DNA of 64,000 bases from an uncultured delta proteobacterium (GCA_963728565.1 CAVSLC010000025.1:32001-96000), one strand, 5' to 3'. Numbered from the stretch's first letter, positions 16,322-24,889 are shown. The notes: generated by a model from the letters alone, not told the origin. Program-made: numbers and translations.

Positions 16322-17248
16322 CTATATCGCTTTATCTTCATGGTGTTGCTTGAGCACAGACGCCAGAATGGAAATCAGCAAGATCCCGCCGACCACGCCT
16401 AACGAAATGCCGATGGGGATTTTGTAGAACTCGGCAATCAGCATCTTCGCGCCGACGAAACAGAGCACGAACGCGAGGCCAACCCTGAGATAGCGGAACA
16501 TCTCCATGACGCCGGCGAGAAGGAAGAAAAGAGCCCGAAGCCCAAGGATGGCAAAGACATTGGAGGTATATACGATGAATGGGTCTAAAGTGATAGCGAA
16601 GATCGCCGGGATTGAATCGACCGCGAAAATAACATCAGTGGTCTCGACAACGACAAGCACCAAAAAGAGAGGGGTAGCCCACAGCTTTCCATCTTTGCGG
16701 ATGAAGAATTGTTGTCCCTGGTAGTCCGGGGTCACGTTGATGAATCGACGCACCAAGCGGACAGCCGGATTTTTTTCCGGCTCAATTTTTTCGTCGCCGA
16801 CGAATAGCAACTTAATGCCGGTGAAAATGAGAAAGCCGCCAAAAACATAGATCATCCAGTGGAAGTTGGACAGCAAGGCTGTTCCGGTCGCGATGAAGCC
16901 GGCTCGCAAGACCAGAGCCCCTAGAATACCCCAGAAGAGGACGCGGTGCTGGTAGCTCGACGGAACTGCGAAGTAGGAGAAAATGACCAGGAAGACAAAC
17001 AGATTATCCACGCTCAAAGACCACTCGATCACATAGCCGGTCAAAAACTCCAGCCCCTTTTCCCCGCCGCGAAAAAAATAAATACCCACGCCGAAAAGAA
17101 GGGCCAGGGAAACCCAGACGCAGCTCCAAGCCAAGGCTTCTCGCAGCGAAACAGCGTGGGCTTTGCGATGCAGCACTAGCAGGTCGAGCGCCAGTATGCC
17201 TAAAACAAAGACGTTAAAAACGACCCATAAAAACAGTTGCGAATCCAT
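16322..17248 (-). CDS. TerC/Alx family membrane protein (copy 1)
   Basis: EWSLSVDNLFVF, QHRVLFWGILGA, ETTDVIFAVDSIPA, SNVFAILGLRAL. Confidence 0.95.
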   Translation of the reverse strand: MDSQLFLWVVFNVFVLGILALDLLVLHRKAHAVSLREALAWSCVWVSLALLFGVGIYFFRGGEKGLEFLTGYVIEWSLSVDNLFVFLVIFSYFAVPSSYQHRVLFWGILGALVLRAGFIATGTALLSNFHWMIYVFGGFLIFTGIKLLFVGDEKIEPEKNPAVRLVRRFINVTPDYQGQQFFIRKDGKLWATPLFLVLVVVETTDVIFAVDSIPAIFAITLDPFIVYTSNVFAILGLRALFFLLAGVMEMFRYLRVGLAFVLCFVGAKMLIAEFYKIPIGISLGVVGGILLISILASVLKQHHEDKAI

Positions 17249-17282
17249 GCGTTGTGTATCCCTTGAAGTCTTGGCCGTTTTT

Positions 17283-17612
17283 TTAAATTTGCAAAAGGAC
17301 GTTAAAGGCGCGCAGATTTTGATGGCAACTGTGCGCGCGCAGGTGAATCGTGTCGTAAGACAAGACCTGTTGAAATGAAACTTCGCTGGCGGTCACCGCC
17401 CGCGCGTGCACCGTTACCAACTTACGGCCGCCGGTGCGAAATCTGCGGATGATGGGGGATCTCGTCGAATCGTCCAGTCGGTCCGACGTGACAAAGTCTC
17501 CGGTGGAAATCTCAGCATAGCTTTCAAGTCGATGAGAATCGGTCGCTAATCCGCCGATGAGAAAAAAAATTGTTAAGACCCAAGAAGAAATCGCCGGCTT
17601 CATCAGACGCAC
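17283..17612 (-). CDS. Putative leader protein 1 upstream of terC copy 1
   Basis: 105-109 aa; hydrophobic N-terminus, basic middle, ends NLRAFNVLLQI*; stop 34 nt before terC. Confidence 0.6.
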   Translation of the reverse strand: MRLMKPAISSWVLTIFFLIGGLATDSHRLESYAEISTGDFVTSDRLDDSTRSPIIRRFRTGGRKLVTVHARAVTASEVSFQQVLSYDTIHLRAHSCHQNLRAFNVLLQI

Positions 17613-17796
17613 GTGGTATCAATTCATATGCATTTAGTCAATCAAGCCTGGGTGAATCAGTCAGCGTCGGTTCGTGGGATATGCCAACCAGCGGGAAATC
17701 GAGACGAACATTGTGGTGACCGCGATAGCCACGCAAAAACTTCTCACCCGCCCATCCGTGAATACTGATGCTCGCGGATAGTGATGAACTTCAATG

Positions 17797-17837
17797 GCGC
17801 AGCTTTGCGTTTCCGTGACTTTTGTGAGGCGCTGAAG
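17797..17837. repeat. Diverged repeat, copy A
   Basis: 35/41 nt identical to 21545-21585 by manual alignment. Confidence 0.7.
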
Positions 17838-18086
17838 GACGGGTGAAAAGTCGCGCATACAACGACCGACGATGTGCTTCCCAGCGTGAAGGAAGGCGGT
17901 TGGGATTCCCTGCGAAAAGAAGATCCCGAAATTTCCCGGCACATTGAGCGGCATTGAAGAGTGTGGCAATTTTAACCGCAGAAATTCCGGGGGTTGAGTG
18001 ATTTACGACCCATGCGTTGGTGCTCTTAGCCGAGATTGATCGGTGGTAATTGACTATTCGCATAGCCGTGGTATACGTTTTGCCTG

Positions 18087-18406
18087 GTGAAACAGATCAC
18101 TATCGGCATAACTCTCTTCCTTTTTTTTTCATCTTCTTCCCTGAAGAGCTTAGAGCAACTCTCGGCTCGTTTTGACGCCGATTCGCAAGAGTCTCTTTGG
18201 ACTTTAAATGACGATTTGTCTTCGGACAATGCCCGTGGCCGTCGCCCCTGAAACGGTCGCAAAGAGTCAAATCCTCAGTTAACAGCTTGCGCGGCGTGGA
18301 AAAACCAGCGCCGGCGATTTCTCTTATCGTCCGGATAATGGAATCGTTCATTTCTCATTATTCCAGGTCGCGCGTTTATCAGCAGACAAACGTCTACAGA
18401 ATTTAA
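18087..18406 (+). CDS. Putative leader protein 2 upstream of the P-type ATPase (frameshift at CCCC 18245-18248)
   Basis: GTG start MKQITIGITLFLFFSSSSL...; adding one C gives 106 aa ending RVYQQTNVYRI*. Confidence 0.55.
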
Positions 18407-18594
18407 CCCGTCCGTCTTCGCTGCACACGAAGCACTTCAAGATCAGGGACATGAATCGCGAAGTTCCCTGTACAGAAGTCACTTGGACAAAAGACGAACG
18501 AACCCGCCAACTCACCGAAATCATAATACTGTTTTCAAACTGGAATGAAAGCCAAAAATTGTGAGCGCTTTAGAATCCACACTACGAGGGATCT

Positions 18595-21296
18595 ATGGCA
18601 AACATACAATGGCATTCGACGCAGGTTGATTCCGTCCTCGGTCAACTGGGTACCGATCCACAGCAAGGCTTGACCGTTGAGGAGGCTGGACGGCGACTGG
18701 AGGTACACGGTTACAACGAACTGAAAAAGGAAGAGAAGAGTTCTCCCTTCATCCTTCTCATCAATCAGTTCAAGAACACTCTCATTATCATACTGGCGGT
18801 TGCCACGGTGCTATCCGCGATCATCGGCGACCTGCTTGACGCCGGCATTATCCTGGCGATCATCGTCTTCTGCGCTCTGTTGGGATTTGTTCAGGAGTAT
18901 CGCGCTGAGCGCGCCCTGGACGCTTTGAAGAAAATGCTCACTCCAACGATTACGGCGCTGAGAGGAGGGCGGGAAGAGGAAATTCCATCAAAGGAACTGG
19001 TCCCTGGTGATATCATCCTGCTCGAGGCCGGAGATAAGATACCCGCCGACGGGCGCTTAGTCGAAATTCACTCACTGCAGTGCGACGAGGCTCCATTGAC
19101 GGGAGAGTCCTTTCCCGTGGAGAAAGATCTCAAAGTTTTACCCGAAGCGGTACCGGTAGGCGATAGAAAAAATATGGTATTTACCGGTACCGCGGTTAGC
19201 TATGGCGAGGCAAGGCAGTGGTGACGGATACTGGATTCAAAACCGAGTTCGGGAAGATCGCCAGTGAATTGGCGACCGTTTCGCAGGAGAAAACGCCTCT
19301 GGAAAAACGCACGGAAGAGATCGGAAAATGGCTTGGAATCATTGCCGTGAGCGCCTGTGTTTTGGTTGTGGTGACCAGCATCGTTCGGGAAGCGATCGGC
19401 GGAAGCTTGGATCTGCAATTCATTCTAATGATGCTGATGTTCGCAATTGCCCTGGCAGTAGCTGCCGTTCCCGAAGCGCTTCCCGCCATCGTGACGGGAG
19501 CCTTGGCCATAGGCATGCGTGAAATGGCAAAGCGTAATGCGCTCGTAAGGAAAATGCCGGCAGTGGAAACTCTGGGTTGCACGACGGTGATCTGTTCCGA
19601 CAAGACCGGAACTTTGACGAAAGGAGAGATGACGGTCCGGCGGGTCTTTGGGGGCGGAAAGCCCGTCGAAGTGAGCGGCGTAGGTTATGCGCCCGAAGGC
19701 GGCTTAAGTCCGGCTTCTAATAACCCGTCATTGAACATGCTGTTTAAAGGCGGAATCCTGTGCAACGACTCCACGCTTTTGGAAACGGGAGGCAAGTGGT
19801 CCATCAAAGGCGATCCGACCGAAGCCGCCCTCATGGTCCTTGCAGCCAAGGCAGGGCTGGGGCGAGAGCAAATCAGAAATCAATGTCCTAGGATCGGGGA
19901 ATTTCCTTTCAGCTCGGATAGAAAACGGATGACTACGATCCACACGATGGAGGACGGCAAGCGCAGGGGGTTTATGAAGGGAGCCCCGGAAGTGATCCTC
20001 GATCGATGTTCGTCCATCTTGAGTGGAGATGAGATAAGCGCGTTGGACGACAGCGAACGTAAAAGAATCCTTTCGGCAAACGAGGAAATGGCTACCGATG
20101 CGTTGAGGGTTCTTGCGATAGCCTACAGCGACCTTCCGGAGGCGGATCAATATAACGAAGATTTCGTTGAAAAAGACCTCGTGTTTCTAGGCCTGATCGG
20201 CATGATGGATCCGCCCAGAGAGGAGGCCCTCGAGGCAGTGCGAGTGTGCCGGCAGGTGTCAATTAAGCCCATCATGATCACCGGCGATCACAAACTCACT
20301 GCCCTCGCTGTAGCGAAGGAACTTGGAATTCACCGCGAAGGAGATCTCGTATTTACGGGGGAAGAGCTTAGTAAAATTGACGATGACGAATTTGAACGCA
20401 TTGTTGATAAGATTACCGTCTACGCCAGGGTCTCGCCACTCGATAAACTCAAAATTGTCAAGGCGTGGAAGAACCGGGGCGAAGTTGTTGCCATGACCGG
20501 TGACGGGGTCAACGATGCCCCAGCCTTGAAACACGCCGACATCGGGATAGCGATGGGCATCACCGGCACCGAAGTGGCGAAAGAGGCAGCGGATATCGTC
20601 CTGAGCGATGATAATTTTGCCACAATTGTCCGTGCCATCGAGCGGGGCAGATGGATCTATGACAATATTAAAAAATATTTAACCTATCTACTCAGAGCGA
20701 ATATTACCGAAGTCGTGGTGTTAGGCGGCGTTGTCATGGTCATGGGGCCCGAGTACTTGCCGCTTCTTCCGGCGGCGATCCTGTATATCAACCTGGCAAC
20801 CGATGGGCTTCCAGCGCTCGCGCTGGGGGTGGCGCCTGCGGATCCGGATATCATGCAGAGAGCTCCGCGCGACCCTAGGGAGAGCGTGTTTTCAAAGGAT
20901 GTAAGAATGCTGATCCTGATGGCCGTACTCATCGAGTGCCCGCTATTCCTGTGGATGTTCTTTCGATCCCAACCGGATATGGAACTTGCGCGGACTCTAA
21001 TCTTTTTCATGTTCGTTTTTATCGAGCTCCTCATTGCCGTTAACTTCCGCTCTCTAAGGTACAGCCTGATACAAGCGCCGCCGCACAAGTGGCTCCTGAT
21101 CGCCATCGGCTGGGAACTGGCTCTGATTGTCGTGTTGATTCAATTTCCAGCGGTCCGAGATGCCTTCGGAATCACCATGCCGTCGGCCTCCGACATCGGG
21201 ATGATCGTTGCCCTTGGCGTCGGCATCGTCATTGTAATCGAGATAGCGAAGGCCGGTTTCAGGACGACGACGCGCGGGCGCACTATGACGGCTTAG
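18595..21296 (+). CDS. P2-type cation-transporting ATPase (Ca2+/Mn2+-like), frameshift near 19206
   Basis: LTGES, VPEAL, DKTGTLT, MITGD, GDGVNDAP; two ORFs join at YG(R)GKAVVT. Confidence 0.93.
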
Positions 21297-21544
21297 GCGG
21301 AACGGCGGTAGGCCAACCCACGTTTTCCCGAGCGGACTGCCCGACCTGGCGGCCCTTCTCGTTGTCAGCGAGCGTCGAGGGCATTCCAATTTTTTCCGCG
21401 ATCCTATCTCGTCAATCGCGCCGAGCCGGCGCGCCGCTGATGGAGGCGATGGGCGAGAAAATGTCTGCTTGATGAACGATCATGGCGCGCCGTCACCGAC
21501 AAGACGACTGAAGATACGACCGTTCGTTGGTGACGTATCCAACA

Positions 21545-21585
21545 GCGCAGCTTTGCGGTCCCGTGATTTTTCTGGCGCGCTGAAG
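21545..21585. repeat. Diverged repeat, copy B
   Basis: 35/41 nt identical to 17797-17837. Confidence 0.7.
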
Positions 21586-21825
21586 CGGCCAGGAGGTATC
21601 TGGCGGTGAGCTACGGCAGCGGCACTGATCCGCTCGGACTCAAGCTTCCACGAAGACGGACGTGGTTTCGCGGGCTGCAAGAATACCGATCATTTCCTAT
21701 GAGAATGAAGATCTCGGCGCCAGCGCGCAGCGCTGAAGAATGCGAGTTTGTTCTTGGGGATCCGCGAGTAGCTCCTGTCTCTCGTAGGAGTATCGCTTGC
21801 TGAATGGGTTCAGCCTGGCATCGTG

Positions 21826-22812
21826 CTAAGCTTCGTCTCCGGTTAGATCCGCTTTGACGGGCTTTTGCAAATGCGGTTCTTTAGGATTTTTGGGCTTGAT
21901 CAGCCACGATGCAATGATCGAGAGCAGCAACACGCCGCCGATGACCGCCAAGGAAACACCGATCGGAATCTTGTAGATGTCGACGAGCATCATTTTGGCG
22001 CCGACGAAGCAAAGAACAACAGATAGACCGATTTTTAGATACACGAACATTTCCATGACACCGGCAAGCATAAAGTAGAGGGCACGCAGTCCGAGAATCG
22101 CAAACACGTTCGATGTATAGATGATGAAGGGATCGTCGGTTATGGCGAAAATCGCCGGAATGGAGTCGATGGCGAAAATCACGTCGGTGGTTTCGACCAC
22201 GATGAGCACCAGCATCAAAAGCGTAGCGTAACTCTTGCCTTCACGGCGAATAAAAAAGTTCTGACCATCGTACTTTCTGATGATCGGTACCAATCTTTCG
22301 AACAGCCTCACCACGGGATTTTTCTCCGGCTCGATCTTTTCGTCTCCTTGAAGGTACATTTTGATTCCGGTGACGACCAAGAAGCCGCCGAAAATATAGA
22401 TCATCCAATGGAAATTGCTCAGCAGCGCGGATCCGGTGGCAATGAAAATGGCGCGTAAGATCAAAGCGCCGAGAATACCCCAAAAAAGCACGCGGTGCTG
22501 GTATTCGCTGGGCGTGCTGAAATATTGAAAGATCATCAGAAACACGAACAAGTTGTCGACGCTCAGGGATTTTTCGATGACATATCCGGTGAGGAACTCG
22601 AGCGCTTTTTCAGATCCCCACGCGTAATAGATCCCAACATTGAAGATCATCGCCAAGCAGACCCAGACAACGCTCCAGATCGATGCTTCCTTAATCGAAA
22701 TCGTGTGGGCTTTGCGGTGGAATACACCCAAATCCAAGGCAAGCATCCCTAAGACAAAAATGTTAAAGCCGATCCAAAGAAATAGTCGTTCCGATTCCAT
22801 TATGACTTCCAT
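21826..22812 (-). CDS. TerC/Alx family membrane protein (copy 2)
   Basis: EKSLSVDNLFVF, ETTDVIFAIDSIPA; clear paralogue of copy 1. Confidence 0.95.
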   Translation of the reverse strand: MEVIMESERLFLWIGFNIFVLGMLALDLGVFHRKAHTISIKEASIWSVVWVCLAMIFNVGIYYAWGSEKALEFLTGYVIEKSLSVDNLFVFLMIFQYFSTPSEYQHRVLFWGILGALILRAIFIATGSALLSNFHWMIYIFGGFLVVTGIKMYLQGDEKIEPEKNPVVRLFERLVPIIRKYDGQNFFIRREGKSYATLLMLVLIVVETTDVIFAIDSIPAIFAITDDPFIIYTSNVFAILGLRALYFMLAGVMEMFVYLKIGLSVVLCFVGAKMMLVDIYKIPIGVSLAVIGGVLLLSIIASWLIKPKNPKEPHLQKPVKADLTGDEA

Positions 22813-22880
22813 TCTCCTGATGTTCGGCGATTGCGCCGAGCTACCCTGTTAAGACAACGACGGGATTGGAGAAAGAAGTC
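22804..22880 (-). promoter_or_regulatory. Predicted RBS/start-codon-sequestering hairpin between leader 3 and terC copy 2
   Basis: mRNA GACUUCUUUCUCC (22880-22868) pairs with GGAGAAUGGAAGUC (22817-22804). Confidence 0.6.
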
Positions 22881-23200
22881 TAAATGCGGAAGACTCGTAG
22901 TAGCCGATGCAAATTTCCAGGGCTACTGCGGGGTGGTGAGAGTGACGTGAGCGAGGATTGCGCTTTTCTAGCTGCGTGTCGGCTGCCGATCTGGGAATTG
23001 AGAGATCGGGCCAATCTTTTCCGGTGCGGTCGAGCTTTGCGTGCTTCCGAATGTCTCAGAATTTGTTCTTGCAGCTTCTCGGAGGAAATAGGCTCGTCGG
23101 CGGACTCCGCGAGCGCCGATTGAAGCACGAAAATATCCATCCCGGAGAGGCCGAAAGTCAGGAAGAAAAGCAAAATCATGTAGCGCAGTGGCGGTACCAT
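22880..23200 (-). CDS. Putative leader protein 3 upstream of terC copy 2
   Basis: 106 aa; hydrophobic N-terminus, acidic then Arg-rich middle, ends NLHRLLRVFRI*. Confidence 0.65.
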   Translation of the reverse strand: MVPPLRYMILLFFLTFGLSGMDIFVLQSALAESADEPISSEKLQEQILRHSEARKARPHRKRLARSLNSQIGSRHAARKAQSSLTSLSPPRSSPGNLHRLLRVFRI

Positions 23201-23242: not shown

Positions 23243-24889
23243 TCACTGGCCGAATCGAGAATAGTCGTGCTCACGGCTGGTGATGAACTCCAAGAGCGCC
23301 GCCTTACCCTCCTGGGTGGCCTTCTTGGCGCGCTCGAAGGCCGGCGCGATTTTATCCGGATCCTCGACTCTTTCGCTCCAACCGCCGAGCGCCCGACCAA
23401 TATCTGCATAATTGCCGCCGACGTTTTGCGTGCCAAAAAGTTTATGCGAGGTCGCCATGTGGCGCGTTTCAGCGGCCATGAAATTATTGTTCAACACGAC
23501 TGTTAGGATCGGAATATTGCATCGGACTGCCGTTTCGAAGTCCAGCCCGGTCATGCCGAAGGCAGCATCGCCCATGAAGTTGACGCAGAATTTTTCTGGT
23601 GCTGCCAATTTGGCGCCCATGATGAGCCCAAGTCCGGTGCCCAGCGCATGAGATTTTCCCCATCCGATGTAACTGCGCGGGATCGGCGCTTGATAAAACG
23701 GAACCAGTTGATTGCGCGGGCTGCCGGCATCATGAGTGATAATCGCGTCTCTGGGATCGATGGCGCGCATGAACTCCCAAAAAACCCGATAGGGGTTAAT
23801 CGGAACTTCTTTGGAAGTGAGCTTAGGCATCCACTGCTCTAGCCAGGGATCCCTTATTTCCTTGATCTTCGCGGTTACCGCATCCACTTTTTTTGGTCGG
23901 TTCACGCCTTGAGCATCTTTTACCGCTTCAATAAATTGACTGAGCACCGGCTTGGCATCACCTAGGATCGGAACGTCGGCGATATAGTGTTTATTGAGGT
24001 CGCGCTCGTCGTTGGTCGCATGGATAATGGTTTTGCCAGGAGGAATAGGCGCAGCGACGATGCTATGCCGGGTAAGACTCGCGCCGATAGCGAATACGAC
24101 ATCGGCCGTCCGCAAAAACTCGTGCACTGTCGGGGGCATAACCCCAGCGCCGGTGCCGAGCGACAATGGATGAGTTTCCGGGAATGCGCTCTTGCCTTCG
24201 AGCGGCGTGGTCACCGGCGCTTGCAGCAATTCGGCAAGCTCGAGCAACTCATCCGATGCCTCGGCGTAGAGTACGCCTTGTCCGGCAATGATAACCGGGC
24301 GATGAGCTTGCACCAGAATCCGCGCAGCTTCAGCGATATCCTGGGGATTCGCGCCACTAACCGTGCGTCTGACCGGGGCATAAATGAGTTCGTTATCGTT
24401 CATCTCCTCAGTCGCTACATCGGCCGGAATCTCAACAAGCACGGGTCCGGGCCGGCCCATTTTCAGAAGGCTGAATGCGCGTCGCATGACGTCGCTGGTA
24501 TGAGAAGCCAGGGCAATTTCTTCGGTCCACTTGGTTACCGTCGCGTAGGATTGCGTTGATCTAAAGAAGTGATGGACCTGAGAAGTGGATCGAGCGTGGC
24601 CGACCGGTAAAAGCAGAACTGGAACCGAGTCGGAATAGGCAGTAGTAATGCCTGAATAGGCGTTTTCCGCGTCCGGGCCCGCCTGCATCGTAAACACGCC
24701 AATGCGCCGGCCATTTAAAATCCGGGTATAACCGTCGGCGATGCCGACACCGACTCTTTCTTGACGACAGATCAACGGCTTAATCCCCGCCGCCGCGGCA
24801 GCCTCGATCAGGGTATTGGTTGGATAGCAAGCAAGAAAATCCACACCTTCACGTTTTAGGATTTGGCTGATGGCATCGACAACTCGCAT
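23243..24889 (-). CDS. Thiamine pyrophosphate-requiring enzyme (acetolactate synthase-like)
   Basis: RQERVG, GRPGPVLVEIP, GDAAFGM...LNN TPP motif. Confidence 0.92.
   Translation of the reverse strand: MRVVDAISQILKREGVDFLACYPTNTLIEAAAAAGIKPLICRQERVGVGIADGYTRILNGRRIGVFTMQAGPDAENAYSGITTAYSDSVPVLLLPVGHARSTSQVHHFFRSTQSYATVTKWTEEIALASHTSDVMRRAFSLLKMGRPGPVLVEIPADVATEEMNDNELIYAPVRRTVSGANPQDIAEAARILVQAHRPVIIAGQGVLYAEASDELLELAELLQAPVTTPLEGKSAFPETHPLSLGTGAGVMPPTVHEFLRTADVVFAIGASLTRHSIVAAPIPPGKTIIHATNDERDLNKHYIADVPILGDAKPVLSQFIEAVKDAQGVNRPKKVDAVTAKIKEIRDPWLEQWMPKLTSKEVPINPYRVFWEFMRAIDPRDAIITHDAGSPRNQLVPFYQAPIPRSYIGWGKSHALGTGLGLIMGAKLAAPEKFCVNFMGDAAFGMTGLDFETAVRCNIPILTVVLNNNFMAAETRHMATSHKLFGTQNVGGNYADIGRALGGWSERVEDPDKIAPAFERAKKATQEGKAALLEFITSREHDYSRFGQ

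Follow-up and report, generated by a model that had tools for sequence, protein, structure and literature searches.

Candidate regulatory leader peptides upstream of TerC, type IIA-like P-type ATPase, and HtpX genes in Candidatus Binatia

Genes for TerC/Alx membrane proteins are usually regulated in cis by the yybP-ykoY manganese (Mn) riboswitch, RF00080. A stretch of 64,000 nucleotides (nt) of DNA from an uncultured delta proteobacterium (GCA_963728565.1 CAVSLC010000025.1:32001-96000; hereafter the window) raises the question of what stands in its place when two terC genes and a P-type ATPase gene carry no such riboswitch and are each preceded by a small open reading frame (ORF). A first-pass annotation of the window had proposed these three upstream ORFs (uORFs) to be membrane-targeted leader peptides of cation exporters, and its interpretation is partly supported here. 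Sequence comparison confirms that the three ORFs are real, conserved leader-type genes, and they probably control the translation of the downstream genes where other bacteria use the Mn riboswitch. A more specific reading, to which we give about an even chance of being right, is that they are exported regulatory leader peptides of the CutF/SecM kind, forming a new family with new targets, that pause at their own stop codon and unmask the downstream start.

Conserved reading frames upstream of terC, ATPase, and htpX genes

The features of the locus, with positions counted from the first letter of the window, are as follows.

16322..17248, minus strand: terC-1, 308 amino acids (aa), TerC/Alx protein (Pfam TerC, 8.8e-52; TIGR03718, 436 bits against a cut-off of 246).
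17283..17612, minus strand: uORF-1, leader of terC-1, family fam1; 109 aa from GTG 17612 or 106 aa from ATG 17603.
17283..17318, minus strand: conserved tail of uORF-1 (last 11 codons and TAA).
18087..18406, plus strand: uORF-2, leader of the ATPase, "VYRI" family fam2; a two-piece match, the frame being broken by a 1-nt gap at about 18245.
18407..18594, plus strand: spacer of 188 nt between uORF-2 and the ATPase, with a pyrimidine-rich box directly after the uORF-2 stop.
18595..21296, plus strand: P-type ATPase, type IIA-like (PMR1/SERCA-like), split into 18595..19224 and 19218..21296, with a 1-nt gap at about 19206.
21826..22812, minus strand: terC-2, 328 aa from ATG 22812, with a second ATG at 22800 (Pfam TerC, 6.7e-53; TIGR03718, 437 bits against a cut-off of 246).
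22880..23200, minus strand: uORF-3, leader of terC-2, family fam3; 106 aa.
22880..22915, minus strand: conserved tail of uORF-3 (last 11 codons and TAG).

The described arrangement, a co-oriented ORF of about 105 aa before terC-1, the ATPase, and terC-2 with gaps of 34 nt from uORF-1 to terC-1 and 67 nt from uORF-3 to terC-2, was borne out by this layout and by the orthologues. The tails quoted at the time (NLRAFNVLLQI, RVYQQTNVYRI, and NLHRLLRVFRI, each followed by the stop) are present as written. For uORF-1, ATG 17603 is the start used in most database homologues.

Open, full-length orthologues of uORF-1 were found in five other genomes of the same genus (G001, G002, G005, G006, and G007, with identities of 85, 53, 50, 48, and 47%) and of uORF-3 in four (G001, G004, G005, and G006, with 90, 86, 54, and 33%), in all cases directly upstream of the orthologous terC. 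The frames stay open and tolerate only in-frame indels. In simulations of random substitution at the observed divergence, the frame remained open in 5 to 7% of trials per lineage, and the product over lineages gives a chance of staying open of 2e-4 for uORF-1 and 1e-3 for uORF-3. The ratio of nonsynonymous to synonymous substitution rates (dN/dS) was 0.53 to 0.91 in fam1 (15 pairs) and mostly 0.26 to 0.66 in fam3, where a pair of near-identical sequences reached 3.0 and another three pairs showed saturation. A high dN/dS with frame and length kept suggests leader-like evolution. The tail codons of both families vary synonymously between genomes. Contigs from two soil metatranscriptome libraries, from relatives that are 90 to 97% identical, give a hint of expression of uORF-1/terC-1 and uORF-3/terC-2: uORF-3 is covered at 22872-23193 in X15, and contigs in X16 bridge uORF-3 and terC-2 (22705-23104) as well as uORF-1 and terC-1 (17123-17382).

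The frame of uORF-2 that begins at 18087 stops at 18251, and a second frame, which carries the quoted tail at its end, continues as far as the stop at 18404-18406. An intact orthologue of 106 aa lies upstream of the ATPase in G001 (L022/L036), and uORF-2 is also intact in G020. The alignment with G000 places the 1-nt gaps in leader and ATPase, both of them gaps relative to G001, at the positions given above, and contigs of relatives from public runs carry an extra base at 18247 (X2 and X15) and an A at 19206 (X2, X15, and X16); in this overlay, run X1 gave no cover at either frameshift site, and no single run spans the whole stretch, uncovered parts being uninformative. Because of the intact G001 orthologue and the extra base in the contigs of relatives, the one-base repair by which uORF-2 had been assigned 106 aa is justified. 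The breaks in leader and pump are due either to assembly error or to decay of the operon in this metagenome-assembled genome (MAG). Neither 18245 nor 19206 is a long homopolymer.

A yybP-ykoY riboswitch had not been seen at the locus in the first-pass annotation, and covariance-model searches agree: RF00080 had no match in the window at the gathering threshold or at E<=10 and none in 41 genomes of the order, the control being positive in 3 of 14 genomes (E. coli, B. subtilis, and Caulobacter). A scan with Rfam at the gathering threshold and at E<=10 likewise gave nothing relevant in the leaders, including the spacer between uORF-2 and the ATPase. Both TerC proteins of the window score above the curated cut-off of the riboswitch-associated model TIGR03718 (NCBIfam "R_switched_Alx"), yet a translated leader is predicted in the place of the riboswitch.

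Profile searches of 5.8 billion proteins returned 21 clusters for fam1, 46 for fam3, and 70 for fam2, all labeled hypothetical and none with a Pfam domain, and an exhaustive hidden Markov model (HMM) search of 1.84 billion representatives (50% identity) with the fam2 profile found 51. With Pfam at E<=0.1, neither uORF-3 nor the intact uORF-2 orthologue had a match, and uORF-1 had one chance match at 0.099. The named records are Candidatus Binatia MAGs, and those of the Atlas are Candidatus Binatota; the leaders were found only in one GTDB family of Candidatus Binatia and in soil metagenomes. In a sample of 200 other genomes from across the class, fam2 occurred in 2 of 13 genomes of the window's GTDB family and in none of 187 from 19 other families; within that GTDB family, fam3 was found in 16 of 90 genomes (including G251) and fam1 in 7 of 90.

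The hydrophobic N-terminus and the acidic and basic stretches noted in the three window ORFs recur in all three families, with the acidic stretch first. The members share one Lys/Arg residue, an uncharged hydrophobic stretch with a median of 19 to 28 residues and a mean Kyte-Doolittle hydropathy of 1.4 to 2.0 (74, 18, and 37 full-length members), an acidic stretch, a basic stretch, and a tail. Their lengths cluster tightly at 104 to 110 residues, longer entries being upstream-start calls or internal tandem duplications, and the C-terminus lies a median of 85, 80, and 76 residues beyond the hydrophobic stretch, with an overall range of 68 to 90. The collected ORFs, the family HMMs, and the logo agree with the expectation that length, signal (as judged by hydropathy), and tail are conserved at orthologous loci. 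An AlphaFold2 model from an alignment of 49 sequences had a mean predicted local distance difference test score (pLDDT) of 61 and a predicted template modeling score of 0.22, with only an N-terminal helix (residues 2 to 36) confident; the Atlas model had a pLDDT of 0.47, and neither AlphaFold2 nor the Atlas searches gave a fold or a named family. In the fam2 members P0024, P0028, P0034, P0040, P0048, P0058, P0059, P0062, P0068, and P0070, the acidic-plus-basic middle module is tandemly duplicated, which lengthens the spacer by about 25 residues and leaves signal and tail in place.

The tail is the most conserved block of fam2, with 3.93 bits per column versus 2.25 to 3.17 elsewhere (P0064, whose tail is out of frame, was left out of the logo). 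The C-terminus is VYRI in 68 of 69 proteins and VYRL in the other one, and more diverged representatives of the family keep an end of the form [VI]-[YFL]-R-[ILV] in 33 of 36 cases. All 21 fam1 proteins end in V-[VL]-L-[QR]-[IVL], and 40 of 46 fam3 proteins end in [QE]-V-x-R-[IVF], the other six having a shorter form. Across the families, the tail can be written as [VL]-[YFL]-[RQ]-[IV]-stop. By hhalign, fam1 and fam3 are likely homologous (probability 81.7%, E 1.1e-5), and fam2 aligned to fam1 and fam3 with probabilities of 19.7% and 11.9%. Of the view that one leader system serves all three genes, the common design stands, and fam1 and fam3 are probably related; shared descent of all three families is not established by hhalign.

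The idea that the leaders are specific to cation exporters did not hold, since fam2 also heads htpX genes and htpX-terC operons. We examined 55 fam2 loci, 54 of which have the tail. The downstream gene was identifiable in 47 and was an ATPase in 37 and htpX, for an M48 protease, in 10; terC then follows htpX in 4 of these 10. Seven fam2 contigs end before the downstream gene, and no other downstream gene was seen among the loci with enough sequence. All downstream products are polytopic membrane proteins. In 10 of the 37 ATPase-type loci, as in the window, leader and ATPase are about 177 nt apart; in the other 27, a conserved 121-aa ORF lies in between. This ORF has a hydrophobic N-terminus and no Pfam family (L043:3508-3873, L044:2231-2596, and L046:3505-3870); the window and G001 lack it, and there about 180 nt separate the leader from the ATPase.

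Upstream of terC in other genera, we found two more leader-like ORFs (L125:1064-1426 in G014 and L124:866-1285 in G019), both missed by all three HMMs. One of them ends in AVYRI-TAG followed by a pyrimidine box and the other in AQVYR-TAA. The leader design may extend beyond the three families.

Stop codons and pairing at the leader end

None of the 53 fam2 loci (33 distinct) has a TGA stop, the codon being TAA in 39 and TAG in 14, and TGA is likewise absent from 6 fam1 loci, 12 fam3 loci, and the 2 further leaders (0 of 73 in all), compared to 13 of 36 long window ORFs used as a control. This avoidance is a hint and not a statistic because the loci are related. Of the 33 distinct fam2 loci, 31 have an anti-Shine-Dalgarno-like pyrimidine tetramer in the 10 nt that follow the stop; of the 36 control ORFs, 3 do. 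A TnaC-like Rho site after the stop was considered and found unsupported; the excess of C over G does not reach beyond the first 25 nt, and a typical Rho site would need a longer C-rich stretch.

At the two terC junctions, the initiation region of the downstream gene is predicted to pair with the end of the leader.

22804..22880, minus strand: predicted helix hiding the ribosome-binding site (RBS) of terC-2; the 5' arm (22868-22880) starts in the stop codon, and the 3' arm (22804-22817) contains the Shine-Dalgarno sequence (SD) and ATG 22812.
17233..17297, minus strand: predicted duplex at terC-1 of the last leader codons (about 17286-17297) with the start codon and codons 2 to 4 (about 17233-17250); the 34-nt spacer and the SD form the loop.

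How well the RBS is predicted to be hidden differs with the type of junction: the pairing is clear at terC-2, weaker at terC-1, and, as pairing between box and SD, not general at the ATPase and htpX types. The terC-2 junction has a minimum free energy of -28.9 kcal/mol (z -2.89), and the same closing helix is predicted in all five terC-2 orthologues. Seven further genomes come from two other genera, and in six of them the RBS window is predicted to pair with the 23 nt that follow the stop, through arms that differ in sequence; the mean probability of this pairing is 0.31 to 0.58 in the six and 0.08 in the seventh. These seven are the loci that passed the position and tail filter among 11 new fam3 junctions screened; L101, L103, L110, and L111 failed, and L102 (G251) was left out. 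The terC-1 duplex is predicted in all six genomes, at -6.4 to -15.1 kcal/mol, and 0 to 10% of control windows within terC bind as well.

The situation is different for fam2, where direct pairing of the post-stop box with the SD was rejected as a general rule on the counts given below; the spacers of this family are 140 to 330 nt long. Spacers of the type that holds the 121-aa ORF are well conserved and carry several hairpins, and in their consensus fold (11 of 14 references, three with spacers of about 290 nt being left out), the partner of the SD is an internal element. In 40 distinct DNA tails of fam2, codons -10 to -4 are nearly invariant at third positions, with the rare Ile codon ATA in 36 of 39, and codons -3 to -1 vary synonymously. 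The fam2 tail codons could form an A-U-rich hairpin of 7 to 9 bp (18374-18394 in the window, where the copy is mismatched, ACA). We rejected it as a supported RNA element: it is conserved, but there is no covariation and z is -1.3.

A proposed mechanism and its alternatives

In the mechanism that we favor, the leader N-terminus would serve as a Sec-type signal or signal anchor, and the tail, [VL]-[YFL]-[RQ]-[IV], would run straight into UAA or UAG. The initiation region of the next cistron would be paired with the termination site of the leader, beginning in the stop codon and taking in the next 12 nt in the terC-2 type and using the last three or four codons in the terC-1 type. A ribosome at the leader end must then open the structure, and the downstream gene would therefore be translatable only while a ribosome occupies the leader end. 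The tail may slow peptide release and make the ribosome pause at the stop, by analogy to the "-stop" arrest peptides or to PepNL. In SecM and VemP, export shortens the translation pause. Export of the N-terminal part of the leaders through Sec could shorten their pause in a similar way, as also in CutF, and how much TerC, type IIA ATPase, and in relatives HtpX is made would then depend on the condition of protein export or of the periplasm. Two inputs are conceivable: load on Sec or the translocon, in keeping with htpX as a target, or periplasmic Mn or Ca acting on the acidic cluster, in keeping with TerC, the pump, and the lost riboswitch.

Several known systems resemble parts of this scheme. 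CutF- and CruR-like proteins are likewise small, co-translationally exported proteins encoded directly upstream of a metal homeostasis gene (PMC9973294; PMC9426467; bioRxiv 10.1101/2025.02.05.636593). CutF (DUF2946) of Rhodobacter capsulatus is described as having a C-terminal stalling-like motif and a stem-loop in the mRNA that covers the downstream RBS and opens upon delayed export, a periplasmic ligand modulating the export (PMC9973294). The window leaders differ from it in having no DUF2946 match, no Cys-based metal motif, and no proline-rich tail, and their tail abuts the stop. The targets differ as well: CutF precedes copper genes, whereas leaders of the window type precede genes for TerC/Alx, a type IIA ATPase, and HtpX.

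Arrest and monitoring leaders have mainly been sought upstream of secA, secDF, and yidC, according to the text of Fujiwara et al. 2024 (PMC10987492). In the "-stop" arrest peptides described there, the ribosome stalls with a stop codon in the A site, and in the secDF2 case that was tested, the stalled ribosome opens a stem that sequesters the SD. Of the four in-silico features used in that work, our leaders have three, namely, an N-terminal signal or transmembrane segment, a conserved C-terminus, and a spacer of more than 30 residues (76 to 85 here), which agrees with the signal-spacer-tail layout and the non-RAPP tail that had been noted in the first-pass annotation. The fourth, a position upstream of secA, secDF, or yidC, is absent, the targets being terC, a P-type ATPase gene, and htpX. 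Unlike the monitoring substrates of that report, the leaders have no proline and no RAPP-like motif and a much more tightly fixed length, and their arrest is only predicted. TnaC and PepNL are similar in that conserved residues directly before the stop could hinder release. PepNL is reported to arrest at its stop codon without a C-terminal proline and with an Ile beside the last residue (PMC11890864). Both are short cytosolic peptides, however, and PepNL uses UGA and RF2 (PMC11890864), whereas leaders of the window type avoid UGA. CzcI is also a small signal-bearing protein encoded next to cation exporters. It was the nearest named cluster in a language-model search, with a score of 0.91 and 81 to 89 shared features, a range that is often reached by chance; there was no Pfam match at E<=0.1, and we judged the lead to be at chance level.

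No earlier description of these leaders was found in the literature searched for TerC, HtpX, and Binatia leaders, a search that did not extend to the supplementary uORF tables of PMC10987492 or the CutF-like network of PMC9973294; the terms HtpX, TerC, and Binat have no occurrence in the text of PMC10987492. By sequence, what appears to be new is the tail motif and the set of targets, while the kind, an exported regulatory leader peptide, is known.

A number of our observations weigh against a pause at the stop of an exported peptide. The export signal was called from hydropathy, a heuristic, and not by SignalP. The tail has no proline, unlike most known arrest motifs. The middles of the leaders are not free to vary, and the conserved and duplicated basic module of fam2 would also suit a protein with a function of its own. 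The terC-2 helix is a thermodynamic prediction with thin covariation (5 of 24 pairs in five sequences), and the terC-1 duplex is weak in the window, at the lowest strength of its range (-6.4 kcal/mol); since the last codons of fam1 are part of that proposed duplex, they also carry an RNA constraint. At the uORF-2 junction of the window, the post-stop box is not predicted to pair with the SD of the ATPase; among 24 fam2 loci, the SD window ranked in the top 10% of spacer windows at 7 and did better than 95% of shuffled boxes at 4. Selection on the fam2 peptide and selection on its RNA are inseparable because third positions are nearly invariant and a hairpin is possible. DNA can contaminate RNA libraries, and a contig across two genes is not proof of one transcript. 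Finally, the leaders are patchy, with 7 of 9 terC loci from other genomes having no leader-like ORF of at least 70 aa upstream.

One alternative is that the ORFs encode small exported proteins acting in trans, as a periplasmic or membrane-anchored partner, chaperone, or regulator of TerC, the ATPase, or HtpX. A PDZ-type or tail-specific protease of the periplasm would then recognize the tail as ligand or degron, and the helices would merely couple synthesis of the small protein to that of the membrane protein. The export signal seen in hydropathy and the conserved acidic and basic middle modules, of which the basic one is duplicated in at least 10 fam2 proteins, are in line with it, as would be the weak lead to CzcI, and the tail, hydrophobic at -1 and -3, resembles the class II PDZ ligand pattern. 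A protein of this kind sits less easily with the lack of a predicted fold, with a dN/dS of up to 0.9 outside the tail in fam1, and with the presence of the same leader family before unrelated membrane proteins, and it would leave the avoidance of TGA, the post-stop box, and helices that start exactly at the stop unexplained. We regard a function in trans as unlikely.

Plain translational coupling without programmed arrest would account for the stop-adjacent helices directly. The leader would then be a constitutive "starter" cistron whose terminating ribosomes open the RBS helix and whose signal brings the mRNA to the membrane, and the tail would be kept for RNA pairing or for its codons, which suits the polytopic membrane nature of all downstream products, the conservation of the fam2 tail codons at the nucleotide level, and the codon-start duplex of fam1. 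In fam3, however, the tail lies outside the helix and is still the most conserved segment of the peptide, with synonymous variation, and diverged fam2 members keep the terminal motif while residues -8 to -5, one arm of the possible hairpin, change. Coupling alone would also not need a length of 106 residues held within a few residues, and we consider it an improbable explanation of the leaders as a whole.

A variant of the arrest mechanism, in which the leaders are periplasm-facing sensors of metal or secretion stress that replace the Mn riboswitch, is doubtful in our estimate. Once exported, the acidic cluster that follows the signal would either bind Mn2+ or Ca2+ or make contact with the translocon and so set the rate at which the nascent chain is pulled from the paused ribosome. 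Through a single peptide code, it would thereby tune an entire regulon for metalation and quality control of the secretosome (TerC/Alx, the Ca/Mn-type pump, and HtpX). If this is true, it would extend a CutF-like mechanism to hard cations with a new, proline-free termination-arrest motif. Structured RNA leaders, that is, a riboswitch or protein-binding element in which the ORFs are incidental, can practically be dismissed: the conserved spacers of the 121-aa-ORF type, with several hairpins and the SD paired with an internal element, and the third-position conservation in the fam2 tails would fit, but the leaders have no Rfam match at E<=10, the frames are open far beyond chance with only in-frame indels, and more than 130 protein clusters keep a constant length, signal, and tail.

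Whatever the mechanism, one recognizable peptide design recurs before TerC/Alx, Ca/Mn-type P-ATPase, and HtpX genes in a lineage without the Mn riboswitch. TerC proteins were reported to co-purify with SecY, SecDF, HtpX, and FtsH in Bacillus subtilis (He et al. 2023, PMC10550928), and the three kinds of membrane protein headed by the same leader design are thus those linked at the Sec translocon in that study. If the tail does stall termination, it would add a proline-free arrest motif, give genetic support from a distant phylum to the TerC-Sec-HtpX link known biochemically in Bacillus subtilis (PMC10550928), and provide a protein-based replacement for a riboswitch.

Downstream genes and neighboring sequence

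The ATPase is type IIA-like and, by its closest models, of the Ca/Mn type, at a level below equivalog that does not assign its ion specificity. The best NCBIfam models are TIGR01116 (SERCA) and TIGR01522 (PMR1), and the protein scores below the equivalog cut-off of each; the intact orthologue in G001 is also under the equivalog cut-off (609 versus 798). The G001 ATPase (L042) is without 117 nt (39 codons, in frame) that are found at 20759-20875 of the window. Within the order, TerC/Alx was found in 17 of 24 genomes of the window's family compared to 0 of 16 in two sister families; the order-wide count is 18 of 41, which includes G012 and G018.

The divergent intergenic region of 474 nt between uORF-1 and uORF-2 (17613-18086) should contain the promoters of both. 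A scan for the sigma-70 consensus gave no promoter within it, and the scan for promoters and terminators was uninformative, with 3 promoter-like sites seen and 5.1 expected. On the other side of the locus, uORF-3 starts only 42 nt past the end of the upstream gene for a thiamine pyrophosphate (TPP) enzyme (23243..24889), and at this short distance, uORF-3 may be co-transcribed with the TPP-enzyme gene.

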